A DNA stretch of 50,941 bases, filler included, from Jimgerdemannia flammicorona (Eukaryota): assembly GCA_003990765.1 (NCBI GenBank). It is 2 parts of 2 records of this genome, joined end to end, with 100 filler letters (N's around TTAATTAATTAA, not from the genome) between each part and the next. Parts side by side here need not be neighbours in the genome. Positions count along the whole stretch, not along the records: positions 25,527 to 50,941 come from RBNJ01000835.1; 1 more part is not named here. One strand, written 5' to 3'. The notes beneath the pieces were generated by a model, which saw nothing but the letters and a program-made list of their open reading frames with translations, had not been told where the DNA came from and ran no database searches. A program made the translations under genes and the position numbers. Below are positions 11,701 to 45,230 of the stretch, one piece after another (the stretch's first letter is position 1; each line of letters starts with the position of its first letter).

Positions 11701-12195
11701 TAATATTAGAGTGACAGAAAGAATTATAAGAATAGTAAAGAGTAATATAATACAAATACTACTGAAACTAATAATAATTAGTGATATATTTTATATATAA
11801 GTAATATATATTAAGTATATAGAGAAAATATCTATATCTATGACAAAGCTATATATTTTTGAGAAAGTAAAAAATAATAATATTAATAGAAAATTATATA
11901 CTAATATAGCTAATAATAATAATATATAACTTATAGATTCAGATACTATATAATATATGATAGTCTATCATAAACCATTTTCCATAAATATATTCTTTAA
12001 GTATCTAGTACCAATTAAGTTAAATAATAATAATATTATATATACTCAAGAAAGAGAAAATATTAGTATATATCTCTATAAGAATATTATAGAGTCTGCT
12101 AGTACTTTTCAGAACATATTATATGTTCTGAAGATAGATAAAAATCTTTTCTCAATTAGTAAAATAATTATTTAAAGTAATAAAGAAATACATAT

Positions 12196-12653
12196 TATAA
12201 TGTAGCAGATGTGGAGATGGACAAATACATCAGATTTCTTTATCTTGAATTCTTGTCTTCTTGACTCCCAGAGTCGGTAGTTCCTTGAGGTCAAATGTGT
12301 TTCAAAGAGGTAATCCCAAAAGTCCCTTTATCAATATACTTGTTCTTTTTCTAACACTTTCGATCTGAGGTTTATTTACTTGAAGATACTGGGGTATTTA
12401 TATAAGTTAGCTAGCTATGAGATGACTTACTAAGTTATGTGGCTAAGTTATGAGTCATTTAGCACTTTGCAAAATATTTTGCCAGTTGTAAAATGCTATA
12501 CTATATCGAGAAGCTCGATCTTACACTTTGCAAAATATTTAGCAAATGGCAAAATTGGAGACTACTGACTATGTGGCTATACTACTTTCAGACTGGTTAT
12601 GATCAAGTATCTGTTCTCTATTTTCTTCTTCCAAATTTGGCTATACCATCACA
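12196..12653 (-). repeat. 3' LTR of gypsy copy 1
   Basis: 458-bp direct repeat of 18404-18861. TG...CA termini, one mutated. Confidence 0.95.
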
Positions 12654-12690
12654 ACTTCCTCCTGAATAGATGATCTCATCCCTAAAGCAT

Positions 12691-13152
12691 CTATTTAAAC
12701 TTCTAGGCTTCAACAGTCTGTATGGTCTTGTACTGTACAATTTGTTGCATTACTGTTTCCCAATAGTACTACCTAACTTGGTCGAAGTCTGAGGGAGTTA
12801 CTCCTCGCAGATGGGCTAGTGCTGGTTCATTCTCTCGGAATAGCTTGTGGATTCTCTTAGTGATAGTAATCTGTGAATAAGAGAGCTGGCATTCTGCAAT
12901 CTAATTTTCTATAGTTATTTCTGGGTCCTGGTTGAGTACTTGGCCAAGTTTGAAGTACTCTTGAAATTCAGTTCAATGTTGATAGGCCTTGAAGTGTGAG
13001 ATTCGAGAGAGATGAGTCTGTATGATGCTTTGGATACTGTCATATGACTCTTCTATGGTCAGAGGCTTGGTAGTGTGCCATTGTCTCTTGATGGCTCTTT
13101 GGGCAGTGCTAGTGATCTTGAGTGCCATTGCAGTACTTTTGTTATTGGTCAT
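12691..13152 (-). pseudogene. Accessory ORF3 of gypsy copy 1 (internal stops)
   Basis: 462 bp, colinear with the intact ORF at 20061-20522. ATG overlaps the integrase end (CATGACCAATAA). Confidence 0.85.
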
Positions 13153-14339
13153 GGTACTTCTTGAGTTGGTTTTGGTGAATGGTAGTGGGGATTATTATGT
13201 CTGAGGGCTTTTATAGATGGAAAGTAGTCCCTTTTATATCTTGCATCAGATAAGGTCCTTCCCACTTGGGCTCTAGTTTTTATGACCAAGAAGCTTCTAC
13301 ATACCATGTTCTGATACACCAGGACTTCATCTCCTATCTTGATAATCTCTAGAGACTTGTGAGTTTTTTCTACATTGTTCCATTATAAGGTTTGTGCCTT
13401 AATTATGTAATCTTCTGCCTTTTTTCTAATTTGATGCAACCTCTATATCTCTATATCTACATACTTCCAGACTGCATCATTATTTGCTGACAAACTTCCA
13501 CTAGAACTTTCTTCTCTGAACAGCATTTCTCAGAGTGTAAAGTGGGTACTTTGTGATTATATATCCCATAGAGTGGATAATGCTATTGGAAGATAGTAGT
13601 CCCAGTTTCCGTATTCATTGCAGATCTTGGCAATAATGTTCTTGAGAGTCTTGTTGGTTCTTTCTGTTTATTCATTTCCTTATAGGTGATAAGCTGTGGT
13701 CTTGATGTGTTGGATCTTGTATTTTGTGTAAAGAATATCATAAAATTGGTTGACAAATTCTGTTTCTCTATCTGTGGTAACTTGCTTTGGGGTCTTGAAT
13801 TGGCAGATAATTTCTCTGTGAAAGAAATCAGCAATTGACTGTGTATTGGCTTCCTTGAGGGGTCTGGCTTCTACCCATTTTGTAAATAGGTCTATAATCA
13901 CAATGACATATCAGTTGCCAGTCAATGTCAGGGGTAGAGGGCCAATAACATCCATTGCTATATGGGCAAATGGTATTGGTTTGATGTCTACTAATCTGGG
14001 GGCTTAATCTCATTGATCTTGTTTCTGTTTCTGGCATTTGTCATAAGTTCTGACAAATTGTCTGATGTGTTCTTCCATTTCTGGCCACTACATGGTTCTT
14101 TTTGCTTTGTCATATGTATTTGTTCCTCCTACATGACCTTGCTCATGTACTTCCTTCATCACTTGATTCTTTCAGTACTTGGAGATAACTACTTGTTGTC
14201 CTTTCTTGAGTATTTCTCCATTAGTTTCAAATTGTTTCCATGTCTGATTAATAATTGTTTTTGTCCATTCTTCCAAATGTGAGGGTATCTTTTGCTGCCC
14301 CAGGTAGCTGATAATTCTATAGTACAGTTCCTTATTCAT
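13142..14339 (-). pseudogene. Integrase ORF of gypsy copy 1
   Basis: Starts MNKELYYRIISYL. Contains IIDLFTKWVEARPL and VTTDR..F. Has stops and frameshifts. Confidence 0.85.
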
Positions 14340-17300
14340 GGTGATTTTGTGGAGGTGGGGTCCACTGAGGTGTCCATGAGAGGGCATCAGCATTGCATTG
14401 GTTCTTCTGGGGTGGTGAATGATTGTGGCATCATATGCTTGCAGCTTTATGATCCATCAGGCATAGATTCCTTTGGATTCACTGGTAGTGAGCAACTAGA
14501 TGAGTGCTGAGTGATCTGTCTGGATGGTGAAATGTCTGTCTGCCAGATAGTAGTGGAATTTCTCTACAGCCCAGATAACTATAAGGCATTCCAGCTTGTA
14601 TGATTTGTAGGACTGCTCAGCTTTATGGGTACCTCAGCTGAGATAGGCTACTACATATTCAGTACTATCCTTCTTTTAAGCAAGGACTGCTCTAAGTCCC
14701 AGAGTACTGGCATCTGTTTGCAAGATAAATTCTTGAGTTCAGTCTGGTCTTCTCAAGATTGGGGCCTGGGTCAATCTGGTCTTGAGCTCATCAAAGGCTA
14801 GTTGCTGCTGCTGTGTCCACTGAAACTTGACCTCTTTTCTGAATAGATCATAGATAGGGCTGGCAATGAGGGAGAATTTTTGAATAAATCTCCTATAATA
14901 GGATGCAAGCCTCATGAAGGCTCAGGCTTCTGTGATACTGGTGGATATGGGGTATGCTGCTACTGTCTTGATTTTCATGGTGTCTGTATATGTTTCTCTA
15001 CCATTGATGATGTGTCTCAGATATGTAATTTCTTCTTCTCCAAACATGCATTTCTTGGGCTTAATGTAGAGGCCATGTTTGTGAAGTCTTCTGAGGATTT
15101 CCTCAATGTGGTCCAAGTGCTCCTTGGCTGTCTGACTGAAGATGATCACATCATTTACATATACCATCATTCATTTTTCCATAACATCCCTGAAGATGCT
15201 ATTCATCATTTGCTGGAAACTTGCTGGTATATTGCACATTCTGAAGGGCATGTGGAGGTAGATATAGATTCCATCAGGAGTGATGAAGCTTGACTTTTTG
15301 CTGGCTTCCAATGTAAGGCTGATTTGGTAGAATCCAGAAAACAGATCTAGGGTGGTGTAGAATTGCACTTCATTTCCTAGTATAATAAGAATGTCACTGA
15401 TATTGGGCAATAGTTGTCTATCTTTCTCTGTGACCTCATTGAGCCTTCTATAGTCTGTACAGAGTCTAGGTGCAAATTCTCCAGATCGGCTCCCTTTCTT
15501 GGGTGTAAGGACAATGGGTGAGGACCAGGGGCTACTGGCTTCCTTGATGTTACCAGATTCCTCCATTTCCTTGATTTCAGTCTTGAGCCATTCCCTGTAT
15601 GCTGGCAGAATGGGGTGGGCTTTTTGGTAAATTGGCTTTGCTTCTCCAGTATTAATATTGTGATAGTATAGAGGCTTCTTGGTCTTGATGTCCTTGAAGT
15701 CAGTGGCCAGTACATCTTCAAATATATGTAGGAGATTCTATAGTTCTTTTCTGAGAGGAAAGTTCTTTCCAATTATATAAGTGTGCTTGTCCTGATTTTC
15801 CTCCTTCTTGTGTAATCTGGGTTACTGTAAGAACTCCTCTTCCTATTGAGCTGAACCTGTTTCTTCCTCACTCTGTTTGTCTGGCTTTTGTAACTTTCTT
15901 GATCCTTGGTTAAGGACAGGTAGGATGAGCATTTGTGCTAGCCAATCCTTCTTCCTTACTTTGAAAGGAATGGTTGGGTTGTGGTTTCTGGCAAGAAGGA
16001 GGATTTCTCTAGTGTAATCTAAATTGATACCTCCTCCTTCTTTAGATATTTCACTTTTGACCAAGCTACTTCTTGTCTTGAGGATTTCAATGTAGTTTGG
16101 CAGGATGGTTACTTTAATTCCTGTTCCCAGTATAGTAGTGGTTTGCAGTTCGAGGATTGTGTATGTTGTAGTGGACAGGTTCATTCCTGCTACATTTTCC
16201 AATTTGTACTGTAGCATGACTGTATCAGGGTGGATTCTTTGTATCTTGACTGTAATGTCTTCTTTATCATCACTGTCATCCAGTAGCTCTGGTGGTCCAT
16301 CTTCTGGTTCCTCCTGGTTCTTCTTTGGCTTGTTGGTGATCTTCTTCACCTTGATGATACAGGAATAGCAGCAATCCAAGTGCTGGGTACAGTACATTCT
16401 TTCACCTTGGGGGCACCTTCCTAATGGGGTGTATCCATCTGCAATTCTTCTATACTATTCCTCCTCTGTCAACTGCTTACCTTTTCCCTTCTTTGTGGTA
16501 ACCATATAGGCTTCTTCTTCTTGCTCTTCCTCTATCTCAGAGCAAACTCCTTTGTGGACATTGATAGGAATTCTGATTTTCTTTCCCCAGTAGATGATTT
16601 GCATCTTCTGTATACTGAGGTCAATCATTGCCTTGGCTTTGTGAAGCCATTGATTGCTGATGAGGATATCATAGTTGGTTGCATTGATAACAATGACATC
16701 TACCAGGATAGTAGCTTCACCAAACTTGATTGGAACATCCTGGATCTTTTCCAAGGGTGTTGCTTATATTCCATTGGCTGTAACAAATTCCAGTTTGGTG
16801 GCTTCTTCTATTTCCCAGCCTAGGTGGTCTACTGCTTTCTTGGTGATGAGACATCCTCCTGCTTCTGTATCAATGATAGCTTCAAAGACTCAGTCCTCAA
16901 TCTGGCAGGTAGTATAGGCTGATGTCTTCTGATTATCTTTGCTTTCTTCATCTGAATCTTCTTGTGCATTATTGGCCTCAATGATTCTGTATCCTTGATC
17001 TTTTCTGATATCAGATATCCCCATTCTCACTTGCTGTCTGAATGTTGGGATTTTAGCCAACTGGCCAAAGGTTGCATTCACCTTCTGGTCTTTGAGGTCC
17101 TTAAAGATATCATATTTGAAGGTCTTGTTCTTGCATAATTTCTATTCCTTCTTTCCTTCACTTGATGGGATGGTATTTCAAATAATATCTTCTACTGCTC
17201 ACTCCAGTTCAATATCTTGTTCTAGCTCCATATCTTGATCAGCTTCAGTCTGCTGGATTTCCTTTTCGATGACTGTTTCTGGTTGTTTCATCTGTGTCTG

Positions 17301-18304
17301 GGCCTTCTTAGAAGGTCTGCCTGGAGGTCTTTTGTAGGGACCAGTTTGGACATCCTTCTTGCTTGTAGTAGTAGGATAAGCTTCCCATTCTTCCCTTTCC
17401 TTGTTAGATTCTCCAATCTCTTCAAAGGTGATGGTGTTCACCTGTTCACAGTTCCTGGTTGCATTACTTGGATTGGTCTTATACTTGGTTTCTATCATAC
17501 AATCAGAGGCATAATGGCCTTCTTCTCCACACCTGTAGCAGGTTACTGATTGCCTGTCATATGTGGCTGTGAATTTCTGTACTGGCTTCTTCTTGAACTC
17601 CTTGACCACATCACTGAGGTGTGCAGTCATTTCTGTAAACTGCTTGGCCAGTTCCTCCATTGGGTCAGCTCTTCTCTGCTCTTGTAGTTGGGGTTGTTGT
17701 TGTGTATTCCTGTTGACTATAGTAGTTGAGGCTGCATTGGTGATCCTCAGTACTTGTTCGATTTTTACTCCTGTTATTCTTTCTATTGTATGGCCTTGAG
17801 GGTGTCTAGCAGTCCAGTATCTTTAGGCATAAGTAATTTTTTGTCCCAGGTCCAGTGCTATTGGGGTAGAGAAGATGGCTAAGGCAATTTCTTGATGAAT
17901 GCCCTTCATGAAGGTATTCTCAGCCACTTGGTCTTGAACTGCATCTGGGTAGTCAGCAAGGACTATTTGGTGTCGGATCTTTGTGTAGAATATGTTTGAG
18001 TCTTCGAACATTCCTTAGCAAATAGTATTCAATTGATCCTTGAGTACTTGTTTGATTTCATCTGTATAGTAGGTTGCTCAGAGCCAGGTCTTGAAAGCCA
18101 GGATTCTTGCTGGATCATCAGCTCCTTGTACATTAGCTGCAGTGAATACAGTTCTTGCTAGGCCTCTGAGGCTATAGGGAGTAAGGCTACTTGTTGCACT
18201 GCACTTAAGATCCTTACAGTAGCATACTGCTCGAAGTCATCAATGAAGGTGATGATTGATTCATCAGAGGTATATCTATGGAATATAGGTGGTCCCATAT
18301 CTAT
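14332..18304 (-). pseudogene. gag-PR-dUTPase-RT-RNase H polyprotein of gypsy copy 1
   Basis: ORF fragments from 17823-18011 through 14922-15170 occur in this domain order. Ends NADALS...HHE*. Confidence 0.9.
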
Positions 18305-18403
18305 TTTTTCTGATTATATTGTGTGGGTTCTTGTTGCAGTTGTTTATTGTTCAGCTTGAAAGTGAGGGATTCATCTTCAATCACCAGCCAATGGGCACTA
18401 AGT

Positions 18404-18861
18404 TGTAATATAGCAGATGTGGAGATGGGCAAGTATGTTGGATTTCTTTATCTTGAATTCTTCTCTCCTTGACTCCTAGAGTTGGTAGTTCCTTGAGGCC
18501 AAATGTATTTCAAAGAGGTAATCCCGAAAGTTCCTTTATCAGTATACTTGTTCTTTTTCTAACACTTTCGATCTGAGGTTTATTCACTCAAAGATACTGG
18601 GGTATTTATACAAGTTTGCTAGCTATGAGATGGCTTACTGAGTTATGTAGCTAAGTTATAAGTCATTTAGCACTTTGTAAAATATTTTGCCAGTTGCAAA
18701 ATGCTATACTATATCAAGAAGCTCAATCTTGCACTTTGCGAAATATTTAGCAAATAGTGAAATCAGGGACTGCTGACTATGTAGCTATACTACTTTGGGA
18801 CTGGTTACAATTAAGTGTCTATTCCCTATTTCCTTCTTCCAAATTTGGTTATACTATTACA
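18404..18861 (-). repeat. 5' LTR of gypsy copy 1
   Basis: Adjacent to the PBS. Direct repeat of 12196-12653. Confidence 0.95.
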
Positions 18862-18903
18862 ATATATACTTTAAGAGAGTAATGATATATATATAGTTTG
18901 AAG

Positions 18904-19192: not shown

Positions 19193-19547
19193 GTTTGAAG
19201 AATAATAAGGAGATTATAATAGTATCAAAATGAGATAATCTTTATTCTATATATATAACTATACTTGATACATCCAATATATAGTATTAATTCTTCAGAT
19301 ATATAGACAAATTAAGTCTAAAAAGAATAATTAGAAAAAGTTCAGTGAGGAGATTGCTAGTATATATAACCTAATGACAACTTTTATAATTATATAGCAA
19401 AAAAAGCATATTAACATCTATTCAATAAACATATAAAATACATATCTAGTATACTCAATTTAATCTATATAGATATATATGGTCTAATATATATTACTTC
19501 TTATAATAGAAAATGATATTTTATTATATTTATTAATAATTATATAT

Positions 19548-20023
19548 TGTAACGTAGCAGACACTTACTCTTGGAAGTACATCGGATTTCTGTATCTTGA
19601 AAACTTGACTGTTCTGACTCTCGCAGAGTCTCTTGAAATTGCAGGGGAGGGTAGGTGAGTTCGAAGTGTATCTGCCCGCAGGCTTACTAGTTCCTTTGCT
19701 ATCTCTTTGCTTTGAACTATTTCGATCTGAGGTTTATTCACTCAAAGATACTGGGTTATTTATACAAGTTTGCTAGCTATGAGAGAGTGGCTAAGTAATA
19801 AATGAGTCATTTGGACTTTGTCGAAACATTTGGACAATGTCTAAATGCTATACTAAATCGGGGTATTCGATTTGGATAATGTCTAAAATTTAGATAATGT
19901 CTAAGGATTTAGACAATGTCAAAATCGAGGACTGCTAACTATAAGGCTATACTACTTTGGGAATGGGTGTGATCAAGTGTCTATTCCCTATTTCCTTCTT
20001 CCTAATTCGGCTATACTGTCACA
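19548..20023 (-). repeat. 3' LTR of gypsy copy 2
   Basis: 476-bp direct repeat of 24832-25307. Confidence 0.96.
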
Positions 20024-20060
20024 ACTTCCTTCTGAATGGATGGTCTCGTCCCTGAGGCAT

Positions 20061-20522
20061 CTATTCAAACTCCCAGACTTCAACAGTCTGTATGGTCTTG
20101 TAGTGTGCAATTTGCTTCATGACTGTCTCCCAATGATGTCTTCTCACTTTCTCGAAGTCAGTAGGGGTTACTTCTCTCAGGTGGTCTATTGCTGCTTCAT
20201 CTTCTTGGAATAACTTGTGGATCCTTTTGGCAATAGTGATCTGTGAGTGGGAGAGTTGACACTCGGCAATCCAGTTCTCCTTGGTCTTTGCTGGATCCTG
20301 ATTGAGCACCTGTCCAAGCTTAAAGTACTCTTGGAATTCTGCCTGATATTGATAGGCTCTAAAGTGCGAGATCCGAGAGAGATGAGTCTGCACAATACTC
20401 TGAATATCCTCACAGAATGGCTCTATGGTCAGAGGCTTGGTGGTGTGCCATTGTCTTTCGATGGCTCTTTGGGCAGCACTAGTGATCTTGAGTGCCATCG
20501 CAGTACTTTTGTTACTGGCCAT
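20061..20522 (-). CDS. Accessory ORF3 (153 aa, unknown function) between integrase and the 3' LTR
   Basis: Open frame conserved in position and length in copy 1. Homologous to the LTR-borne ORF at 26521-27510. Confidence 0.8.
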   Translation of the reverse strand: MASNKSTAMALKITSAAQRAIERQWHTTKPLTIEPFCEDIQSIVQTHLSRISHFRAYQYQAEFQEYFKLGQVLNQDPAKTKENWIAECQLSHSQITIAKRIHKLFQEDEAAIDHLREVTPTDFEKVRRHHWETVMKQIAHYKTIQTVEVWEFE

Positions 20523-21705
20523 GATATTTCTTAAGTTGGTTTTGGGAAATGGTGGTGGGGATTATTGTGCCTGAGGATTTTCGTAGCCAAAAGGTAGTTC
20601 CTTTTATATCTTGCACAAGGTAAGGTTCTTCCCACTTGGGCTCCAGTTTTCGTGACCATGAAGCTTCTACCATATTCCAATACACTAGGACTTTGTCTCC
20701 TATCTTGATAATCTCCAGGGGTTTGTGGGTCTTTTCCGCATTCCTCCATTGCAGTGTCTGCACCTTGGTTATGTAATCCTCAGCCTTCTTCCTGATTTGG
20801 TGTAGTCTCCGTATTTCCACATCCACATGTTTCCATACAGCATCTCTATTGGGTGATAGGGTTTCTTGAGAACATTCTTCTCCGAATAGCATTTCTTGAG
20901 GGGTAAAGTGGGTACTTTGTGATCAGATATCCCGGAGAGCAGATAATGCTATTGACAGATAGTGATCCCAGTTCTTATAGTTATCACAGATCTTAGCGAT
21001 AACATTCTTGAGGGTTTTGTTGGTCCTTTCTACTTGTCCATTTCCTTGAGGGTAATATGCTGTGGTCTGAATATGCTGAATCTTGTACTTCTTGTAGAGA
21101 ACTTCGAAGAACTGGTTCACGAATTCAGTTCCTCTATCTGTAGTTACTTGTGTTGGGGTCTTGAACTGGCAGATGATTTCCTTATAGAAGAAATCGGCGA
21201 TTGACTGTGCATTGGCTTCCATAAGGGGTCCCGCTTCTATCCACTTTGTAAAAAGGTCTATAATGATGATGATATATCAGTTGCCAGTCAAAGTCAAGGG
21301 TAGAGGGCCGATTACATCCATTGCAATATGGGTGAATGGTACTGGTTCTATGTGTGCTGATCCTGGGGCTTGATTCCATTGGTCTTGTTTCTGTTTCTGG
21401 CATTTGTCGCATGTTTTGACGAATTGTCTGATATCTTCCTCCATCCCTGGCCACCATATTGTTCTTCTTGCCTTGTCGTATGTATTCGTTCCTCCTAGAT
21501 GGCCAAGTTCATGTACTGATTTTATCACTTGCTCCTTCTTGTGTTTGGGTATAACCAGTAGTTTTCCTTTCTTCAGTGTTTCTCCGTTGGTTTCGAATTG
21601 TTTCCATGTCCTGTTGATAATCATTTGTGTCCATTCTTCCAGATGTTGGGGCATCTTTCGCTGTCTCAGGTATGTGATAATTCCATAGTAGAGCTCCTTA
21701 TTCAT
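20512..21705 (-). pseudogene. Integrase as a separate ORF (398 codons, few in-frame stops)
   Basis: HELGHLG...CDKC zinc finger, D-D-E core (IAMDVIGP, TTDRGTEF, QVERTNK) and a GPY/F-like KWEEPY, all in one frame. No chromodomain seen. Confidence 0.9.
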
Positions 21706-24700
21706 GATTGCTTTGTTGGTTAGAGGTAGTTTGAGGTGTCCATGAGAGAGCATCTGCATTGGAATTTGTTCTTCCAGGGTGGTGTACGATGGTTACATCA
21801 TAGGCTTGTAACTTCATTATCCATCTGGCATAGATTCCTTTGGGTTGTCTGGTTATCAGTAGCCAGGTGAGAGCTGAGTGGTCCGTCTGGATGGTGAAGT
21901 GTCTTCCAGCCAGATAGTAGTGGAACTTTTCCACAGCCCAGATGACTGCAAGGCATTCCAGCTTATAGGACTTGTATTCTTTTTCAGCTCCTCAGGTTCC
22001 ATGGCTAAGATATGCAATGACATACTCCTTTTTGTCTTCTTTTTGAGCTAGGACTGCTCCTAGTCCTTATGCACTTGCATCCGTCTGAAGGATAAATTCC
22101 TGGATCCAATTGGGTCGTCTGAGGATAGGTGCCTGGTCAGTCTGACCTTGAGTTCATCAAATGCTTTCTGTTGTCTGCCAGTCCACTGGAACTTGGTATT
22201 CTTCTTGTTGAGTTTGTAGATCTTGGTGCTGGTGAATACTCCTCTTCCTGTGGATCCGAATCCTTTCTTTCCTCTTTTCGTTTCCTCCAGATTCTTGACT
22301 TCTATGATCCTTGGCTGTATGATTGAGAAGATCAACATCTGTGCCAATCGGTCCTTCTTCTTGACTGGGAATGGAATTGTAGGATTGTGGTTCCTAGCAA
22401 TGAGTAGAATTTCTCCAGTATAGTCTGAATCAATGACTCCTCCTTCAATTGTGATTTCGCTTCTAGCCAGGCTGCTTCTTGTCTTGAGAATCCTAACATG
22501 ATCCTTTGGGATGGTCATCTCCAGTCCAGTTGGGAGTAGGGTGGTTGTCTGGGGTTCCAGTACAGTCTCTTCCACTGTAGCGATGTTCATTCCAGCTGCA
22601 TTTTCTGACTTGTATTCTGGCAGGACTGCATCAGGGTGGATCTTTCGAATTTTGACCTTGATTTCTTCTTCATCATCACTGTCCTCCAGGAGGGCTGGTG
22701 GTTCATCATCTTCCTCCTTCTCTTCTTCCCTGATCTGTTTTTCGAGAGCTTTCTGCCTTCTTTCCTCATAGATCTTCTTGGTTCTGATGGTGCACTGGTA
22801 GCAATCATTGACATGCTCTGTACAGTACATCTTGATCCCATGAGGACAGACTCCTTGTGGGGCATAGCCTTCTGCGATCTTCTTGCACCATTCTTCTTCA
22901 CTCATCTATCCGACCTTCTTCTTTTTTGGAGTAGTCACCATATAAGCTTCCTCTTGCTCACTCTCTTCTTTCTCCATATCGGGCAGGACTCCTTTGTTGA
23001 CGTTGATGGGAATTCATATCTTCTGTCCCCGGTAGGTGATCTGCATCTTCTGAGCATTGAGATCGATTACTGCCTTGGCTTTGTGAAGCCATTGATTGCT
23101 GATGAGGATGTCATAGTTGGTGGCATTGGTTACGATTACATCTACTGGGATTATTGCTCCTCCGATCTTGATGGGAACATCTCAGATCTTTCCCAGAGGT
23201 GTGGCTCTTGTGCCATCGGCTGTGACAAATACTAGCTTAGTTGCTTCTTCCACATCCCAACCTAGGCAGTCTGCTGCCTTCTTACTGAGGAGACATCCTT
23301 CTGCTCCTGTGTCAATGATGGCTTCAAAGACTCGATCCTCAATTTGGCATGTTGCATAAGCAGAGGTTTTGTGATTGTCCTCACTTTTTTCTCCTGAATC
23401 CTCTTGAACATTATTGGACTCAGTTATCTTCCATCCTTGTTCCTTAGTTGTTTCGGCAAGTCCAAACCTCATTTGCTGTCTGAATGTTGGGATTTCTGCA
23501 AGCTGACCAAAGGTTGCATTGACCTTTTGTTGACTGAGATCCTTGAAGATATCATACTTGAAGGTCTTGGTCTTGCGAAGCTTCTTTTCTTTTTCTCCTT
23601 CGCTGGCTGGAGTGGTCCCTCGGATGATATCTTGAACTACTTGCTCCAGCTCGATATCTTGGTCCATCTCTTCGGCTTCACTTTCTGTGGCAGTTTCCAT
23701 CTGCTTTTCCACTGGGTTCTTCTTGGGTCTTCCTGTTGGTCTCTTGTAGGGTTCTTTGCGAACACCCTTCTTGGTGGTCTGAGCAGGGTAGGCCTCCCAT
23801 TCCTCTTCATTGGATTCTCCGATTTCTTCAAAGATGATTGTATTGGCCTGCTCCTTGTTTCGTGTAGCATTGCTTGGTTGAGCCTTGTGTTTGGTTTCAC
23901 TCATACATTTGTAGGAGTAGTGGCCTTCTTCTCCGCAGCTGTAGCAGGTACCTTTCTTCTTGTCTGAGGTGGCGGCAAACTTCTGAACAAGGTGGCGATC
24001 TCTTCCTCAGATTTCCTTTACCACATCTCCCAGGTGGGCAGTCATTTCAGCAAACCTTTTGGTGAGTTCCTCCATAGGGTCACTGTTCTTTTGCTGCTCA
24101 GTAGCTTTTGGCTGAGGTGTGTTTCGATTGATCATTGTGGTGGGGATCATACTGGTTGCCTTGGGTGCCTCGATTCTGACTCCTGTAACTCTTTCCATTG
24201 TATGGTCTTGTGGGTGTCTGGCTATCCAGTATCGCTGAGCATAGGTGACCTTCTGTGGCAGATCCAGAATCACTGGTGATGAGCGGATGGCCATGGCTAT
24301 TTCCGGATGGACTCCTTTCATGAAGGTTGCTTCAACTACTTGATCTCGGATAGCAGTAGTATAATCTGCAAGGATTATCTGATATCGAATTCTGGTATAG
24401 AATGTGTTTGGATCCTCACTCATTCCTTAGCATGTTGTGTTGAGCTAATCCTTCAGGGCTTGCTTGATCTCATCTGTGTAATATGTATTTCGGAGCCAGG
24501 TCTTCTGTGCTGTCAGTATAGCATCCGCATCATTTCCTGCATGGGTTGCGGCTGTGAATGCTGCTCTGGCAGGACCTCGTAGGCTGAAGGGCATGAGGGC
24601 TACTTGATGTACTGCTGTCAGGGTCCTTACAGCAGCATACTGCTCAAAATCATCAATGAAGGTGATGATTGATTCATCTGAGGTATATCCATGGAATACT

Positions 24701-24717
24701 GGTGGTCTCATATCCAT
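21698..24717 (-). pseudogene. gag-PR-dUTPase-(RT deleted)-RNase H polyprotein of copy 2
   Basis: ORFs 24445-24963, 24007-24423, 23182-23904 and 22060-22905 share one frame. RH (TDHSALTWL...NADALS) ends at TAA 21698. Confidence 0.9.
22246..22662 (-). other. dUTPase domain within pol (homolog at ~15840-16257)
   Basis: Five trimeric-dUTPase motifs: AAGMNI, KTRSSLA, GGVIDSDYTGEI, DRLAQM, RGKKGFGSTG. Confidence 0.95.
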
Positions 24718-24810
24718 CTTGTCTGGGTATTGGGGCTCGGTTTGTATGGTTGTTTGGGTGGTGGTGGTTGTTCGTTGTTCAGCTTGAAAGTGAGGGATTC
24801 GTCTTGAATC

Positions 24811-24828
24811 ACCAGCCAATGGGCACCA
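24811..24828 (-). other. PBS TGGTGCCCATTGGCTGGT of gypsy copy 2
   Basis: TGG begins after a 3-nt spacer following the 5' LTR. Conserved in copy 1. Primer tRNA not identified. Confidence 0.75.
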
Positions 24829-24831
24829 AGT

Positions 24832-25307
24832 TGTAACATAGCAGATGCTTACTCTTGAAAGTACGTCGGATTTCTGTATCTTGAAAACTTGACTGTTCTG
24901 ACTCTTGTAGAGTCTCTTGAAATTGCAGGGGAGGGTGGGTGAGTTCAAAGTATATCTGCCCACAGGCTTACTAGTTCCTTTGCTATCTCTTTGCTTTGAA
25001 CTATTTCGATCTGAGGTTTATTCGCTCGAAGATACTGGGTTATTTATACAAGTTTGCTAGCTATGAGAGGGTGGCTAAGTAATAAATGAGTCATTTGGAC
25101 TTTGTCAAAACATTTGGACAATGTCTAAATGCTATACTAAATCGGGGTATTTGATTTGAATAATGTCTAAAATTTAGACAATGTCTAAGGATTTAGACAA
25201 TATCGAAATTGAGGACTACTAACTATAAGACTATACTACTTTGGGAATGGGTGCGATCAAGTGTCTATTCCCTATTTCCTTCTTCCTAATTCAGCTATAC
25301 TGTCACA
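24832..25307 (-). repeat. 5' LTR of gypsy copy 2
   Basis: Direct repeat of 19548-20023. TATAAA on the minus strand at ~25044-25049. Confidence 0.96.
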
Positions 25308-25426
25308 ATATATAAAGTATATATATACTTATTATTAGTAGAGAACAAAGTTCTGAATAAATTTAAAGAATTTAAAGTAATTATAGAGAATGAAATAAGA
25401 TATAGAATATATACTATATGCTTAGA

Positions 25427-25526
25427 NNNNNNNNNNNNNNNNNNNNNNNNNNNNNNNNNNNNNNNNNNNNTTAATTAATTAANNNNNNNNNNNNNNNNNN
25501 NNNNNNNNNNNNNNNNNNNNNNNNNN
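25427..25526. other. Assembly gap with artificial TTAATTAATTAA six-frame-stop linker
   Basis: 100-bp N spacer with the linker at 25471-25482. Confidence 0.98.
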
Positions 25527-25740
25527 TGGAGTACTTCTTTCTTTGAATGAAGTTTATCCCACTTGTTGCAGGTGTGGAGGTCAAATTGTCCTTGTATGTC
25601 AGGTTCAATTCTCTCCAGATTGTCAGATGGTTCAGGATAAATTCCAGTTCAGAGGTTGGGCTCTATACCAACTTGTAGGAATTCTCAGAGGGGTTTATAG
25701 TGGGGTGAGGAAGCGTCTTGAAGCAGAATTGGATTGTAAT

Positions 25741-25752
25741 CCACTGCTACCA
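25741..25752 (-). other. PBS TGGTAGCAGTGG (initiator tRNA-Met-like) of a third LTR element
   Basis: Follows ...CTTACA-ACT, the same spacer as in the gypsy copies. Resembles TGGTAGCAGAGG, the complement of a eukaryotic tRNAi-Met 3' end. Confidence 0.75.
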
Positions 25753-25755
25753 AGT

Positions 25756-27798
25756 TGTAAGAGGGTTACTTTTTAGGATAACTGTTATGTAGTTCTGGAA
25801 GGGTTTTCTGAAAGTTCTGGATATTCTGGAAGACTGTTTTCTTATGGTCAAGGTCAATTTCGTATGGAGTACGTCCTCTACACTTATTAATTTCAAGATT
25901 GGGTTGACGTCTCAACCAAAGTCCTTTTCCGGACTAGTTCTGGATGTTCAGGATTTTCCATATTTCAGGAAGTTCAGGAAACTAAGACCAGCTTAGTTGG
26001 ATTGGCATATTGCTGCAGACAATACCCAATTAGGAAATTTCGTGGCAGGGTTGGGAGTGGGACCTAACAGGGAGCGGATTTACTTAAGAGTGGTTTGTGG
26101 GTTATGGAATAGATTTATTTGCTATTCATGATATTGCTATACTAGGAGTATTTGTGTGAAGGGGTATTGTGGGGAAGTATTCAGGAATGTTCTTGTCTGT
26201 TCGAGTCTCAGATTCTGAGGTCTGGGGGAGGGGGTATTTATACTAGTGAGGGGCTATCTAGACTATGCTAGATATGGATGTAGCACTAAGTGCCTTGCTG
26301 AGTCGGAATGCAGTCACGTAGTACAAGTGTGATCTGACATGTCAAGAGATCGTCTGACTGCTGAGTCAGTTCACAGTCACGTCATACAAGGCTAATCTAT
26401 CTATACTATGACTGCTAGACTATTTATAGGTCTAGGCACTATCTGGGTAGTCTTCGATGATATCACCATCAATTGCATCATCTCTGATGAAGTAGTTGTC
26501 TAGGAAGAGTGGTTCACGGATTACTTCTCCTTGTTGGCTGAGGTAGTAATCATTGGGACTTCATCTCCGTCCCATAGGATAGCATCATCTGTCTCGTACC
26601 CTGGATAAGGTGTTGGTGGGCAAAGGATAGGTGTATTGTCTTCGCTTTCATCGGATTCACTATCTGCGTACCTTCTATAGGTTACAGCACTATGAGTCAT
26701 GGAGTTGTAGTAAGCTGGCGGCTCTGGTTCAAGTTGCTTATACTCAGGTGGTGGAGTGGTTGGTTCAATCTCGAGGGTTGTCTGGAGGTACAGATTGTGT
26801 TCTCCGGTCTCTTCATTGTAGTTGAAGTAGTCGGGGGTGAATGCAGGTTGGTATTCGTGCCAGTGGTCATTGTCCCAATAAGTCTCATATGCAGTTATGA
26901 ACTGTTGTAAGTTCATTGGCAAGGTTGGCGGAGATCCTTGGCTAGAGGTCATGTCGGTGTCAGAGGGGTCATTGTCTTCTGCTTTGTCTTCATTGAAGTG
27001 GATTATATCGTAGACATCCTTCATGGTGTATCCGACTTGAGGCATTTGCAGGATATGGTCATCGGGGTGCGGGAAAGTTCTGTCTGTGGTTTCGACATAC
27101 TCGAGGTACTTGTGGTTGATTTCTTGTATCATGTCATCGATTTGGCCATAGGACAGAGTAGCAACCATTTCGCTGATAGTGACTCGGAGGTGGGGAATAA
27201 AGGTGTTGTACTCATAGAAGAGATCTCAATGTTTGTAGGTGATGAGCTTCTGGTGTTGAGACAGCTGGGTAATGTCTGTATCATGGTGGTGTTCGACCAT
27301 GTCTTCCAGGAGGCGGCCAATCTGGTAGTAGCTTGAGATTTGTCCGATTCGGTGTGCCTCGCTAAGCATGTTCAGGGCGTTCCATCGGGCTTCCACAAAG
27401 TAGAGGGGTGCTAGGCTATGGATATTCATGAGGGGCAGAGGGGGTGTGGCTCGGTTGACAATGGCATTTCAAATGTCAGCGCGGATGCGGTTGTAGATCT
27501 CAGTGGTCATGTTGGTGTGTTTGGAAGTTGTGGTTGTTGTTTGTTTTGGTTTTCTGATTCGACGCATCTCGGTGCTCAGTATATATGCATTTGGTCCTAA
27601 TTGGTAAGGTTCCGTTTGTGTAGATCTTGTGTTCCATGACTTTGTATTGACTCAGCTTTGTGCGCTGTGACTTCGGTTTGACTCAGCTTCGTGATCAAGC
27701 AGGTGATTTCCAGATTTGTTCGGAGGTCGCATGTGATTTCAGTGGCTTGTTCAGAGGGTGATGTGTAATTTTGGTGGCTTGGAGGTTGTGCGCTTACA
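25756..27798 (-). repeat. Probable 2043-bp 5' LTR of a third LTR retrotransposon (internal part runs into the gap)
   Basis: Inverted termini TGTAAG...CTTACA, adjacent PBS, TATAAATACCCC at ~26231-26242. Sharp composition change at 27798. Partner LTR is not in the window. Confidence 0.75.
26521..27510 (-). pseudogene. 329-aa ORF inside the LTR: ORF3-like N-terminal domain plus acidic/Pro/Tyr-rich C-terminus
   Basis: ATG at 27510 and ORFs 27226-27429 and 26521-27168 are all in one frame. Interrupted by only two TGA codons, probably CGA>TGA. Confidence 0.8.
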
Positions 27799-28033
27799 AA
27801 AAGCTATATACAGAATCTAGATATTGTATATATCTATACAAATACTAATTGATCAGTAATTGATCAGTAGTTTGAAATGTCAAAAAGAGTATATAAATCC
27901 TTAAGTAAGTATATTAGTTTGTTGATGAGGGTTTTTGTACTTATGAGAGATTTATTAGAATGAAGGAATGGGGTTGTACTAGATACTTTTAGCCTTGTCT
28001 GGTCTTGGTGACAGCCTCATTCTTATATAAGAT

Positions 28034-28036
<3 letters not shown>

Positions 28037-28111
<75 letters not shown>

Positions 28112-34700: not shown

Positions 34701-35566
34701 GAGATGGTGGCATTTGGGGGAACTCTATATTAGTGATCATAGTCTGAAGGAGTACTCATTGGTTGAGGTGATGGAATGGATCAGGCCTGGCCCTCTAGAG
34801 AGATAGCTGACAGGTTGGCAGAAGGCAGGATTGGGTGAAGGCTGGGAGTGGGGCAGAATCTAGAGTTGGGGAGATATCTTACTCAAGGTAGTACCCCCTA
34901 AGTACTGGGTTATATAGTGGCACTTTCTGAGAAAGAATGTGATATTGGGGTATCAGATAGGATAGATGGAGGTAGATGGCTGTTGGGACTACAAGTGGTG
35001 CAGTGAGATAGATAGTGGGGTGGTTCAGTCACTAGAGCATATTCTGGCAGCCTGCCCTGGTATAGAAGGGTTCTGACAGTGCTTGGAAGATTACTGGCAT
35101 ACTGCTGGCAGAAGGACAGAGGATTCTGTCAGTCTGGTAGTCAAGTGCCAGCTGGTGGGAGAGATAGAAGATGTCTGGGGTAGCCTAGGTCGAGTCCTGG
35201 GGGTCTGGGTTCTGATGGCAGTACATTAGAGATGGGTGTTTGAGTGAGACCCATGGTTAGAGATTGGTGAGCTGGTGGAGCAGTGAAAGTGGCTTCTTTG
35301 GGAGGTAGTATAAGGGTGGTGATATCAGGGGAGGTGGCTTCAGCCAGAGACCTTGTGGAAGGTACAGGATATTATTCAGCAGAGTTGAGGACACCTGGTA
35401 TTGGATGAGTATGGGATCAGATAGAAGGAAGGAGTTGGGTGACTGACCCTATCTAAATATGATATGTTACTATAGCAGTTGTGGTTAATTTTCTTGTAAT
35501 AGTGTTTTAGATAGTTTGAATAAAGAAGTCCAAGTAACTGTAAAAAAAAAAAAAAAAAAAAAAAAA

Positions 35567-35600
<34 letters not shown>

Positions 35601-36167: not shown

Positions 36168-36251
<84 letters not shown>

Positions 36252-38344: not shown

Positions 38345-41300
38345 CATCTTTCTCAGTTACCACTCACATTACACACACTTTTACAACACACTTTCAAGTG
38401 TTTATTGGAGAAAGGTACTAAGGCAATGGCAACCAACAAGTAAGTTGACATGTGTACTAGGTCAGGTAGACCTGGAGCCTTCAAATGGCAATATGTTGGA
38501 TGTGGATATGGATTAGGGATGGGGTCGTTTGGTGGTCTGAGTGGGCAGGGCAGTTCAGGCAGTGATAGCAGTGCTGGGGGAGGAGCAGGAGGGCAGAAGG
38601 AGAGGAGCTTTGCAGATACATTGAAGAATAGTGGATGGCCTATTGGATCTTATGATAGATGGATGGAGGGGAAGAGAAAGCAGAGAGAAGGAGAAGTAGG
38701 AGGTGCTGGACCTCTGCCAGTGGGGGGAAGGGCTAGTGGAGCAGCAGCTGGGAGTAGGGGGGGGACTGCTGATGGTAGTGTAACTAGGAATCTGGAAAAA
38801 AATCCAGATATAACTACTGATAGAGAGGCTGGGCAGATGGGTCCAAAGAGGAAGAGGGACCTGGCAGATGGTGTGATGGGGCTGGCAGTGGTACTGTTAC
38901 TCAAGAAGTTGATCTTGGAGTTTGCTGTGACCTTATATTTCCAGAGCTTGGCTGTAACAATAAGGATGGTTCTGGGAATTATCTTGGAGCAAGTGACTGA
39001 GATTGCATTGGTGAAGTTTCTGAAGGGACTGGAAGGGGTTGAGGTGGGTTTTGAGAAGACAGGTTCACTGGAGGAAGCTTGAAGACTAGAGTAGTGGTAG
39101 GAGAGGTAGTGGTCCTTATGGTATAGTGTTTGAGATGGGACTCTAGAGTGGTTCAGTTGCTGGTAAAGAGAGTGTCTATGGTGATGAAAGTTGAGACTAA
39201 GAGGAGGGTAGAGGAGGTGATAGTGAAGTATGGCAATGTGATCAATATTGGATTCTAGATATAGGAGGGAACTACTTTCAGGATAAGAGATATTGACATC
39301 AGGATTAGACAGGCAGAAAGAGAGGCCACTGGGAAGATGAGTGACTGGCCTTCAGTTATGCTGTAAGGGGCCTTCATCTGTAAGGTATCAAGAGTGAAGA
39401 GGAGTGAAGAGGAGGAGGAGGATCTGCTGGAGGTCTTAGAGGAGATGAGTGGGGTAGTTGAGCAGAGGGAAAAGGCCTGGAAGGTGTATAAAGAGGCTAT
39501 ATATTTGGAAATTGTGGATGAGAAGTATATTCATATGGACAAGAGGCAGTGAGAGAGGGCTCAAGGATGCAAGAGATAGAGAGAGTTGTTGACAAGTATA
39601 GATAGAGAGATAAAGAAGAATACTAGTAGAGCTGAAGAGTCTGGAGGGGCCAAGGTGAGTGTCTGGGCTAGTAAGAGAGGAGAGAATAGAGAGGGGGGCC
39701 TGGATGGGGCCAGAAAGATGCCATGCAATGACCTATATGCTGATGGTATATTCAAGATCTGGGAAGAGAAATTAGATAGCACTCCTCCTCCTCTTATCAG
39801 GAGGGATCCAGCTTGGAGATATAAGGCAGTGGAGGATATGCTGATGTATGGTGCCCAGTAAGTTCACTTTGGAGTTCCTGATATGGCAAAAGGGAGACAG
39901 GTGGTGGTAGTTAGCAAGGATGAGCTGGTGGATATTCTGAAGGAGGAGTGGGATGAGACAGTGAGTATAGGGGCCAATATTACAATATTGGATATCAGGA
40001 GGCCAGTGACATCAGGAGGGAAAGAGGTGGGGAACCTACTATAGATGTGTTGGATAATGAACAACTTCACAGCTAAAGAGTTAGGAGAAGTAGACCTGAG
40101 AGTGATGAGTGAGGAGCATTGAGCATAGATTCTGTATGATGATAGAGTGGTGGAGGTACTAAAGGTAGAGATACTTGTGATTCTTCTGGAGGAGGAGGGG
40201 TATGAGGTTGATAAGGAGAGGGAGGCTGAGCTGGCTGTTGTTGCTAGTGAGAGGGCCACCTTCTGTTGAGCAGAGCATTATGGGCTAAAACTCTAGCAGG
40301 AGGCTTATCTGGAGTATCATGAGGAATTTGAAGAAAAGGAGGATGGAGAGATGGCTGAACTGCTGATTGGATTAGAGACAAGAGAGGCTGAAGAGGAGAG
40401 ATTGGCTGCTGAACATAACTTGGATGTAGCTCAAGAGGGGAGAGATGTGGACTTATAGAGAATAAGTAGGATACTACTTCTAAACATTCTTCTCAATGAA
40501 TAGTATAACTAATATTTTTTCTCTAAATATAAATAGGTTATAGAGATCTAGGTGATAGAAGAACATTTTTACTTAGCTTAAGAGATTGGAGGCTGATCTC
40601 TTTCTGCTGCAGGACATACATTATGAGGATGAGATAGATCAAGTAGAGTGGGCTAGAGAATGGGGAGGAGCCATAGCTTGGATTGGAAAAATGGCAATTT
40701 TTGTACACAGGGATAAAGGAGAGCTTGGTGAAATCAGGAGCTGGAGTGACTATTTGGTATGGGGAGAATAATGTCAACCTGGGTAGGAGTCAGTGAGAGT
40801 TGGCTCTTACTACTGCCCAGTAGCTAGAAGTGAGTGGATTGCATGAATTCAGGGTCTTTTGAAGAAGAGCACATTCTTGGAGGATGGGGTGGATGTTCTG
40901 AGAGGTGACTTCAATATGGTGCAGAATCTTCAGTTAGATAGAACTGATGGAGAGAGGAGTACTGGTAGAAGGAGTAGTGGTCTGGATACATAGGAGGAGG
41001 TAGAGAACCTTAGCTTCTTAGGAGATATGGGCAGAATGCAGTGGGGAGAAAAGAGGATCTACACACATTGGATGAATAGTCTGGGTATAAGGATTGACTG
41101 GATACTGACAGCCAAATGCTGGGGCCTGGATGTTTAGAGGACTCTAGAGGTAGAGTAGTGCCCATGGTCAGACCATTGGGGACTGTTAGAGTAGGGGTAG
41201 TTTAGGGGGAGTGGAGATGGACCCAGACATTAGTGCCTTAACTCCTCTCTGCTAACTGAGGAAGTATTGTGGGACTCTTGGGCAGAGGATATTCAGGGGA

Positions 41301-44236
41301 AGATCATAGGCTAGATATATAAGGGGTTACAAGTAAATGTCCAGTAGATGAAGTTAAAAGAGGCTGTGAGAGTTTACTGAAGAGAAGTTGGTAGGGATGC
41401 TGGGAGGCAAAGGAGGAAAAGAGTGAGATGTACTTCCAATAGGTTGGTTAGACTGCAGATAGAATAGACTGATTTGATAAATTTGGGTGAGGTGGATGAT
41501 TGGTAGTTAGCATGAGCTAGGCTAGAGATAATAGAGCAGCAACAGGTGTTGAGGAAGGAGGAGGAGATGCATATAAAAGAAATGGCAGCTAGGTTGAGAT
41601 GGTAGGGACTTGAGAAGAGAGAGAGGCCATCTAGGTACTTGTTGAGGCTCCTTCAGGCAAGAAGGGTATACCATTGGTGGGATGGAGTCCTTGATACTAA
41701 GGGAGAAATAGTACATGGAATGCAATAGATCTTGGGGTTGCTGAAGGAGCAATGGCAGGGTCTGTGGAGTGAGGAGGAAGGGGGTGCTAATGCAGAGGCA
41801 ATTGGAGACACTCTGGAGAACTGAGAGCCACCACTAGTAGAGGGCCTGGGGGATTTGATCCTTCTAGTCCAAGAGGAGGAGGTCCAGAGAGTCCTTGTAG
41901 CAACTAAGCTTAGTAAGGTACCAGGAGAGAATGGTCTATCTTGGGACTTTTGGAAGAAGATGGTACAGGTCCCTAGGGTGTTGGGAGAGATGGCAGCCCT
42001 CTGTGATCTTGTTCTTTTAAGAGATCAGTGGGTGGGAGGGCAGGACCTAGGGCTGGTGGCTCTGTTGTACAAGGATAAGGGAAGGAGAGAGGATTGGAAG
42101 AACTAAAGACCAATTATGCTTCTGGATATAGACAGGAAGATAGTGACTAAGGTGATTGTGGTGAAATTACAGAGAGTTGCTCAACAGGTATTGGGTGAGG
42201 AGTAGCAGGACTTTGTTGGTAGCAGACTCATCAGAGATAAGATGGCCTGGGTCTATAGTATCATTGAAGGGGCAAGGACTAGTGGATTGGATGGGAGATT
42301 AGTCTTTTTGAACTAGGAGAAGGCCTATGACTATGTTCAGCAGGTGTGGCTGGGCAAGATGTTGGACAGAATAAGAGTTCCCCCATTGTTTCAAGCTTTT
42401 ATATTGAATCTGTTGGAGAGTAGTAGAGTGGTGATGATGTGTAATGGTCACCAGGGTGTGGCATTTCACTTAGAGAGAGGAGTTCCTCAGAGGGGCCCAT
42501 TGTATCCTATTCTATATGCCCTTTTATTAGAACCTTTGATAGATAGGATTTGGCAGAGAGTGGCAGGGCTCACTATTTATAGTATAGTGTGAAAGATGGG
42601 GGCCTTTGTAGATGACATAGTGGTTGGACTTGGATCAGTGGCAGATGTTGAGGCTCTTAAGGAGATGGTAGAATGGTATGAGGCATACTCTGGAGCAAAG
42701 CTCAACTAGTATAAGTATGAGACTATAGTATTGGGAAATGGATTAGTGGGTAAGAATATCATTAGAACAATTGTCCCAGCAGGAGAGGCAGTGAGGTATC
42801 TGGGTATCTTCCTTTCAGTATATGGATCAATCTTACTGTAGGTATGGTGGGAGAGGAGAGTGGCTATCTGGAGAGAGGTACTTCAAGGCTGGGGAGGTCA
42901 CCATATCTCTCTGGCAGGCGGAGTTTCAATTCTGAATGTCTACTGGTTCTCTAAGCTGTGGTATATTACCTATTACTTGAACTTTCTAGCTTGAGTAGTG
43001 AAGAGACTGATGAAGATGGCTAGAGATTGGATTTGGACTGAGAGGCGATCCCAGATCAGCTGGGATACTCTTTCATTACTGGTAGTTTGAGGGGAGCTAG
43101 GACTGGTAGACTTTTCTAAGAGGCTACATTGTCTGAGAGCTTGGTGGTTGAAGCAAGCAGTAGAACTGAGGGGAGGGGGATGGGTGCCATTGATACAGAA
43201 GATATGAGAGATGAGATTCTCCTCAAGAGAGTCCTCAGGAGATTTGCTTTTCCTGGTGGGCCTGGGTAGAAGCAATAGGCTGTAGTATAAAGGTTTCTAG
43301 TAAGGGGTGACAGATGGAGTACACCATATAGACATGTGCTAGAGTAGCAATAAAGAGGAGATACTGTGGAAACTAGCTATTTAGAGATGGAACAGACTGC
43401 TTCTGAGGGGCACTCCACTTATTGCCTTTGATATTAGTGATAGAGTGGAGTGTCAGAGGGGACTTGGTCAGGATCTCTGGCCTGACAGTTAGCAAGCAGT
43501 GAGGATTGGTGAGGAGTGGGATTGGGCAGAAGTCTGGGAATAGAGTACTGAGGTGTGGAGATGACTTCCTCCCAAGTATTGAGTAGTATGGTGGTGGATA
43601 CTATGGAGGAATATTATGTTGAATTTCTGTGCTGGGCATCTAGTGGATGGTGGCATACTGGAATATAAGTCATTCTATGATATCAGATAAGTTGAGGGAT
43701 TTGTACAGACTCTGGAACATTGGCTGAGAGAGTGTGAGGTTCTGGGAGACTTTTGGATAACAGTAGAGGACTGGCTGGGTATAAAGAGAAGGTCAGATGG
43801 GAAGAGAGATCACTGGGAGGATCTGAGAACTAGGTTGGTAGAAGGGGTGGGTAATGAATGGCTCACTATAGGGTGGGTTTTAGCTATATAGGTTGGGCTG
43901 GCCAGATATTGGCTCTTTGTATTTAAGAAGAGATGGCAGCTGGGCTTGTAGGAGAGTTTGTTAAGATGAGAGGAGTTGGTGGGTGATATACTGATAGAGT
44001 AGTGGGTTGGATGGAGTCCCCAGGGTGGGCATCACCACTATTTGGTAAAAAGGTTTGTTGACAGAGTAGTGAACAGGTGGGGGTGATTAATGGCCTAGTG
44101 GTCTTTAACCAAGAAAGGGCAGAGGGTGGGGGTCCCCTAGGGAGATCAGATAGGGGTGGACCTAGTATATTATATATGGAATAGACAGCTGTATTAATAA
44201 AGGAATAAGTCCAAGAGACTATAAAAAAAAAAAAAA
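38345..44236 (+). mobile_element. Full-length degenerate LINE (family 2)
   Basis: 15-bp TSD GAGAT(G/A)TCAAAATAA (38330-38344 and 44237-44251) and poly(A). Colinear with 45144-50941. RT motif GVPQRGPLYP. Many stops. Confidence 0.95.
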
Positions 44237-45143: not shown

Positions 45144-45230
45144 CATTCCATCTTTCTCTGCTATAATTCGCATTACACACACTTTTACAACACACTTTCA
45201 AGGTGTTTATTGGAGAAAGATACTAAGGCA

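Follow-up and report, generated by a model that had tools for sequence, protein, structure and literature searches.

A decayed fungal long terminal repeat that probably carries a whole accessory gene in its U3 region

The sag gene of mouse mammary tumour virus (MMTV) is a superantigen open reading frame (ORF) that lies within the U3 region of a betaretroviral long terminal repeat (LTR), and the nef genes of human and simian immunodeficiency viruses (HIV and SIV), like the bel/bet genes of foamy viruses, overlap U3. LTR retrotransposons capture occasional ORFs downstream of pol, according to PMC6431247, and their accessory or additional ORFs (aORFs) are placed in PMC6431247 and PMC7264820 between pol and the 3′ LTR (see also PMC5408684). 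The phrases looked up in PMC7264820 for an ORF within an LTR do not occur there, and no retrotransposon with a gene inside its LTR was found in the open-access literature, subscription papers lying outside the scope of the search. Here we describe a 2043-bp segment at positions 25756-27798 (plus or minus 1 at each end) on the minus strand of a 50,941-nucleotide (nt) stretch of Jimgerdemannia flammicorona DNA, hereafter the window, which we read as the 5′ LTR of an LTR retrotransposon from an AT-rich genome, probably that of a soil or root fungus. Its U3 region probably holds a complete accessory gene, ORF-L, in sense orientation and upstream of the main TATA box. The LTR architecture is real and unusual, and is seen here in a decayed copy.

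On the plus strand the segment opens with TGTAAG (25756-25761) and closes with CTTACA (27793-27798), an exact inverted repeat in which six of six positions are complementary, and its GC content is 45% compared to 29% in the right flank. A PBS-like (primer-binding site) TGG tract, TTGGTAGCAGTGGATTA, was read on the minus strand at 25737-25753, 2 nt beyond the LTR end with AC in between, so that a 2-kb segment with these termini and such a tract, as proposed in an earlier reading of the same DNA (the original prediction), was borne out. No transfer RNA (tRNA) gene was found in the window by ARAGORN, leaving the PBS-like TTGGTAGCAGTGGATTA without a tRNA to match. The first 229 nt of the internal leader (25527-25755, minus strand) follow the LTR before the contig ends. 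Blastn of positions 25527-28010 against the window returned the self match only; with a single copy in the window, neither an LTR pair nor a target-site duplication can be seen. The same interval contains no Rfam family at E ≤ 0.1.

The borders of the repeat were next apparent from contigs of four public runs (X1, X2, X3 and X5; two soil metagenomes and two runs from one organism, coded A), aligned to positions 25527-28010 at a likeness of at least 80%. The segment was covered in all four runs, by 3658, 444, 412 and 31 contigs, with depth falling to zero from 27851 on (two bins) and being low in the bin 27768-27850 in each of them. Left of 25756, depth fell 2-5 fold without vanishing, as expected for a single-copy interior beside a repeat present at least twice per element. 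Loose contig ends at 27799 agreed with one another in X2 (five contigs), X5 (one) and X3 (one), and their minus-strand sequence is a run of purines that leads straight into TGTAAG. To judge by its sequence, this conserved purine run abutting 27798 in other copies is the polypurine tract in front of the 3′ LTR. In one X2 contig the LTR terminus at 27798 is joined to another copy at position 26126, which marks a nested insertion, and X2 record 9 bridged the LTR/PBS junction (25626-25833). Position 27798 is thus an element terminus in two unrelated contexts and a polypurine-tract junction elsewhere, which is the signature of an LTR start. The claim of one LTR with the gene inside it stood as well, a short LTR excluding the ORF, named beforehand as the contrary case, not being seen in the contigs. 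Differences between the window and other copies were mostly transitions and were skewed: in X1, the window had G and the others A at 98 places and C and T, respectively, at 49, with 54 A>G and 27 T>C changes in the reverse sense. X2, X3 and X5 showed a similar skew, corresponding on the sense strand of the element to an excess of C-to-T in the other copies.

ORF-L lies inside these borders at 26435-27510 on the minus strand and comprises about 358 codons when read through its defects. A search of 1.84 billion protein representatives at E ≤ 0.001 returned three proteins. Two are genuine homologues: P0003 (247 aa, E 7e-82), with 64% identity over residues 115-320, and P0004 (128 aa, E 5e-69), with 90% identity over residues 1-128. 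The third, P0005 (436 aa, E 3e-4), is internally repetitive, matched in six short stretches, and was rejected as spurious and left out of the alignments. The minus-strand frame runs from 27510 to 26524, its ATG being 288 nt inside the LTR start, and is broken by an in-frame TGA at codon 14 (27469-27471; W in P0004), a second in-frame TGA at codon 95 (27226-27228; R in P0004) and a frameshift at 26550-26565, where one base has been lost relative to other copies. The alignment of P0003 to the window takes up two frames, with the switch at 26554/26557, and an extra base is present behind 26550 in contigs of all four runs. The frameshift removes about 40 C-terminal residues, the alternative frame reading on through YPDSA until it stops near 26434, some 680 nt short of the LTR end and about 190 nt before the main TATA box. 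The longest ATG-to-stop ORF in the segment is 215 aa (26521-27168). With two TGA codons and a frameshift, the window copy of ORF-L is a pseudogene with three defects. The ORF had been predicted as a single open frame (27510-26521) inside the LTR and upstream of its TATA box; its position and frame were confirmed, and its openness was lost to the two TGA codons and the frameshift near 26555.

The two homologues are open where the window copy is broken, P0003 over 247 codons and P0004 over 128, which implies a family protein of about 358 aa. P0003 differs from the window by in-frame indels only and retains the C-terminal tail missing from the window copy, and long conserved blocks persist in the C-terminal half between the two. 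That a frame should stay open at 64% identity speaks for likely constraint on the protein. By hand count, the 19 best-supported ORF differences between the window and other copies (from the best 40 of 421 differing places) fell 4, 5 and 10 times at codon positions 1, 2 and 3; being private changes of a dead copy and a partial list, they carry no conclusion on selection. Many loose ends of contigs from X1, X2, X3 and X5 also agreed at 26923-26933, which suggests a short insertion or duplication in other copies at 26917-26946, in the acidic linker where P0003 is four residues longer. Word-index protein searches gave no further homologues of ORF-L. Searches for relatives of the protein or its alignment in viral, genome and metagenome contig collections, the metagenome one scanned twice, gave 4, 17, 74 and 38 pattern matches, none of which was confirmed by tblastn.

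As predicted, the C-terminal half of ORF-L is acidic and rich in proline and tyrosine: the 184 residues from 146 to 329 include 37 D+E against 7 K+R, 22 P and 15 Y, for a net charge of -30. Pfam returned no family for ORF-L at E ≤ 1 and no recognisable DNA-binding domain, and a sequence search of the PDB gave noise only (E 0.17-0.23).

The motifs around ORF-L suggest how the LTR may be organised. Upstream of the gene on the minus strand are two tandem 31-nt modules, each with GCTGAGTCA (27626-27688), followed by a TATA-like ATATATA (27580-27586), a presumptive promoter element 70 nt upstream of the ATG. Downstream of the gene, also on the minus strand, two modules 63 nt apart that carry GCTGAGTCG/A together with GTCACGT (26296-26398) are inverted relative to the upstream pair and 70-77% complementary to it. 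The TATAAAT at 26236-26242 would be the main TATA box of the LTR, with the presumed U3/R border about 30 nt downstream; it bears out the earlier placing of an LTR TATA box beyond the ORF. A second copy of TATAAAT occurs at 26428-26422 (minus strand). The only AATAAA on the minus strand inside the LTR (26114-26119) is presumed to be the poly(A) signal. From these motifs, U3 would extend from 27798 to about 26210, R to about 26095 and U5 to 25756. All four GCTGAGTCR sites of the window fall in the LTR, two before each TATA, a number reached by none of 100 shuffles. The inverted modules were also considered as terminal inverted repeats of a nested DNA transposon, and this was rejected on the grounds that they are only 70-77% complementary, that each pair lies upstream of a TATA, and that no contig joint skips the ORF.

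The window further contains two gypsy copies on the minus strand (about 12195-18880 and 19547-25308), with CCHC gag, protease, dUTPase domain, reverse transcriptase (RT) and integrase, and with a post-integrase ORF, ORF3. In copy 2, ORF3 (20064-20522, minus strand) encodes 153 aa and ends 36 nt before the 478-bp 3′ LTR; in copy 1 (12694-13152, minus strand) it is decayed, with four stops and 74.5% identity to copy 2. The LTR described here had been taken to neighbour this gypsy family, which did not hold up: positions 25427-25526 consist of 44 N, TTAATTAATTAA and 44 N, a block of 100 nt with stops in all six frames whose form is that of a contig spacer. The window was accordingly read as two joined contigs, such that features on either side need not be genome neighbours. 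Since the LTR stands at the very start of the second contig, its proximity to the gypsy elements tells no more than that both belong to one assembly.

The two kinds of element nevertheless have features in common. The 12-nt junction TTACAACTTGGT between LTR end and PBS is shared with both gypsy 5′ LTR/PBS junctions (three of three window matches at no more than one mismatch; three reached by 0 of 100 shuffles), and the one other occurrence of the leader 9-mer TTCAAGACG (25714-25722) is in the gypsy leader (two of two window matches; two reached by 0 of 100 shuffles). Apart from this common junction and 9-mer, the two LTR types were unalike and had different PBSs, as had been stated, blastn finding no similarity between the LTR and the gypsy LTRs and the PBS bodies differing. 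It was also observed that in both families one T separates the purine tract (20025-20036 in gypsy; the loose ends at 27799 here) from the TGT that opens the LTR, and that the LTRs of both end in TTACA followed by ACTTGGT, their bodies being unalike.

Comparison of the proteins pointed in the same direction for ORF-L and ORF3 by several methods. The ungapped match to ORF3 quoted in the original prediction (12 of 28 residues identical) was confirmed. BLASTP of ORF-L against ORF3 gave E 0.017 with 16 of 56 residues identical, and hhalign of the two family alignments, that of ORF3 (A3) comprising 11 sequences, gave a score of 21.2 and P 0.0088 over 55 columns (27% identity), pairing residues 57-111 with 62-118. 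Nine database homologues of gypsy ORF3 are known from our searches, at 61-78% identity. Column shuffles reached the hhalign score once in 160 for either alignment. Because the ORF-L/ORF3 pair had been chosen after reading the window, searches were also made against all 609 window ORFs of at least 40 aa. With a hidden Markov model (HMM) of ORF-L, ORF3 of copy 2 ranked first (E 0.0022) and that of copy 1 second (E 0.041), the next ORF standing at 1.3; shuffled ORF-L profiles reached E ≤ 0.0022 on any of the 609 ORFs in 2 of 200 cases. The ORF3 HMM, run against the 609 ORFs plus the uninterrupted proteins, found P0004 (E 0.027) and P0002 (E 0.037) as its best non-self matches. ORF-L and ORF3 are thus reciprocal best non-self matches among the 609 window ORFs, BLASTP, hhalign and both HMM directions yield the same alignment register, and the matching positions are conserved columns of ORF3 (Y66, L69, L73, I85, L90, Q94, I97, L104 and F105). 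In a language-model search, run without a control, ORF-L and ORF3 shared their first cluster and three more, a weak signal given that these may be hub clusters. Mean pLDDT (predicted local distance difference test) values from AlphaFold2 were 43.6 for ORF3 (11 sequences) and 34.6 for ORF-L (three sequences), both too poor to use, the aligned part being mostly helical in both. Pfam placed ORF3 nearest PF24408 at E 0.13, below the cut-off of that family. On balance, the helical N-terminal domain of ORF-L is probably related, at some distance, to ORF3, which follows integrase in a gypsy family akin to the present element.

The order of parts along the minus strand suggests how such an LTR might work and how it might have arisen. 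From the LTR start at 27798, the two GCTGAGTCA modules are followed by the TATA-like box, ORF-L from 27510 to about 26435, the inverted module pair, TATAAAT at 26242, AATAAA at 26119, the LTR end at 25756 and the PBS. Every LTR, solo ones included, could then make a short LTR-confined mRNA that would start near 27550 and use the LTR's own poly(A) signal. Genomic RNA would be initiated beyond the second TATA in this order, with ORF-L again at its 3′ end. The RNA order of pol, accessory ORF and R would be the same in both families, the polypurine tract coming after the ORF in gypsy and before it here. As the plus-strand priming site sets the LTR start, its displacement upstream of the ORF would make the ORF part of U3, and the ORF would then be found in both LTRs after one round of reverse transcription. 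Entry of the gene into the LTR from the post-integrase slot is plausible, since it would require no more than displacement of the polypurine tract.

Several points weigh against an LTR gene related to ORF3. The window offers one decayed copy, with no LTR pair, target-site duplication or gag-pol of the element, the last being out of sight because the contig ends 229 nt into the interior. Only two genuine homologues came from the 1.84 billion representatives, and as P0003 begins at residue 115, no full-length intact copy was seen among them. No foreign contig spans polypurine tract, LTR start and ORF together, and in X1, X2 and X3 the contigs lie about half as deep on the ORF part as on 25776-26440, so that some LTR variants may be without the ORF or more diverged there. 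The promoter, poly(A) and function assignments are motif-based only. Finally, the hhalign probability is 4.6%, all E-values exceed 1e-3, about 55 of 128 and 153 residues align, and nothing in ORF-L was found to match the ORF3 block that is conserved best (residues 42-58).

These last figures bear on the strongest rival, namely that the LTR gene is real and unrelated to ORF3, having been acquired independently, for instance by capture into U3, with a chance similarity between two helical orphans. Weak HMM E-values (0.002-0.04), the 2 of 320 and 2 of 200 shuffles that do as well, the choice of the pair after reading the window, the unequal lengths (about 358 versus 153 aa) and the unmatched ORF3 block would all be natural under independent acquisition. 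What chance would not readily produce is a pair that is reciprocally best among 609 ORFs, in one register by all methods and on conserved columns, encoded by genes that both abut the polypurine tract of elements sharing junction and leader motifs; the shared language-model clusters add to this weakly, hub clusters being possible. We therefore hold independent acquisition to be rather unlikely, though a serious contender. Of the homology originally claimed, what survived is a best non-self match in both directions that beats 318 of 320 shuffles; what did not is any strong score, the match standing at E 0.002-0.03 only, with the low hhalign probability and about 55 residues.

The halved depth over the ORF part could alternatively mean that the true LTR is the ~680-bp segment 25756-26440 and the ORF an internal post-pol gene like ORF3, or that the unit is a composite of two elements, and the unseen LTR pair and the TATAAAT directly after the ORF stop would suit such an arrangement. 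However, the repeat ends exactly at 27798, with no cover beyond in any of the four runs, a purine tract abutting that same base and one copy nested through it, and the ends at 27798 and 25756 are exact 6-nt inverted repeats. Near 26440 there is no purine run with TG after it, runs of at least nine occurring only at 26532-26524, 25930-25922 and 25544-25534, and the GCTGAGTCR modules on either side of the ORF tie both halves together. A short LTR or a composite is thus improbable. Still less probable is that the ORF has no present function in any copy and is the remnant of an old capture that U3 has retained, as the three disabling defects of the window copy, the tiny family in protein libraries and the lack of a Pfam or PDB match might suggest, given that P0003 is open over 247 codons at 64% identity with in-frame indels only, that P0004 is open over 128 codons, and that long conserved blocks persist in the C-terminal half.

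Returning to a U3 gene related to ORF3, we can only guess at the role of its product. A helical N-terminal domain joined to an acidic, aromatic and proline-rich C-terminal half with conserved blocks would fit a trans-acting regulator, acidity not being specific to such proteins; that ORF-L encodes a transactivator of the element's own expression is a doubtful proposition, and an RNA-handling or anti-silencing role would fit equally well. A fuller picture, which we advance tentatively and consider possible rather than probable, is that the LTR is a self-contained gene, with enhancer modules, TATA, an ORF of about 358 codons and the LTR poly(A) signal. Each insertion would bring two copies of a trans-acting factor, and solo LTRs would be dispersed units serving the family. 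Such an LTR would have come about when the polypurine tract moved from the 3′ to the 5′ side of a post-integrase gene of ORF3 type, and would be a fungal counterpart of retroviral U3 genes that evolved independently.

The rest of the window has eukaryotic retroelements as well. Both gypsy copies carry a dUTPase domain (PF00692) between protease and RT, at 22063-22905 (E 2e-26) and 15846-16454 (E 1e-8) on the minus strand; fungal gypsy elements have dUTPase at varying positions, the protease-RT interval included, according to PMC2864245. Two LINE-like (long interspersed nuclear element) copies lie on the plus strand at 38398-42650 and 45203-49435, about 6.8 kb apart and 71-76% identical. One of them has Exo_endo_phos and RVT_1 domains within 47485-49374 and, upstream, two ORFs without Pfam match, 45144-46358 (405 aa) and 46362-47189 (276 aa). 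Very long poly-T or poly-A runs occur at 28035-28110, 35542-35600 and 36170-36250, in AT-rich DNA.

The accessory genes of LTR retrotransposons are normally described as lying between the LTRs, and a whole gene with its own promoter in U3 would change both dosage and inheritance, as it would be doubled at each insertion and survive in solo LTRs. In the 5′ LTR such a gene is upstream of the element's promoter, where read-through could interfere with genomic transcription or couple to it. Should the link to ORF3 be true, relocation of the plus-strand primer site would provide a simple route into the LTR and may explain sag- or nef-like arrangements in retroviruses. ORF-L would in addition represent an orphan protein family of repeat-rich fungi that may regulate transposon expression or counter silencing.

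Compared to the described systems, ORF-L most resembles MMTV sag in being a whole sense ORF inside U3, so that the two LTRs and the 3′ end of the genomic RNA would each contain it. It differs from sag in having no sequence relation to it (no Pfam family at E ≤ 1), in its host, which is a retrotransposon of an AT-rich and probably fungal genome and not, as for sag, a vertebrate retrovirus, in having its own TATA-like box and enhancer-like modules in U3, and in encoding an acidic protein in which no membrane or superantigen features were detected. With nef and bel/bet it shares the position of an accessory gene beside the polypurine tract and extending into the 3′ LTR; the viral genes, however, start upstream of the polypurine tract and only overlap U3, whereas the ATG of ORF-L is wholly inside the LTR. 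Like the aORFs of Ty3/gypsy elements, it is an orphan accessory ORF at the 3′ end of the RNA genome, but the LTR does not include those aORFs, which are found between pol and the polypurine tract. The gypsy ORF3 of the same window is likewise predicted to be helical, shares a 55-residue block at 27% identity, abuts a polypurine tract and belongs to an element with the same LTR-end/PBS and leader motifs. At 153 aa versus about 358, ORF3 lacks the acidic Pro/Tyr-rich half, and it is located upstream of the polypurine tract and outside its 478-bp LTR, whereas ORF-L begins past the polypurine tract and 288 nt into the LTR.

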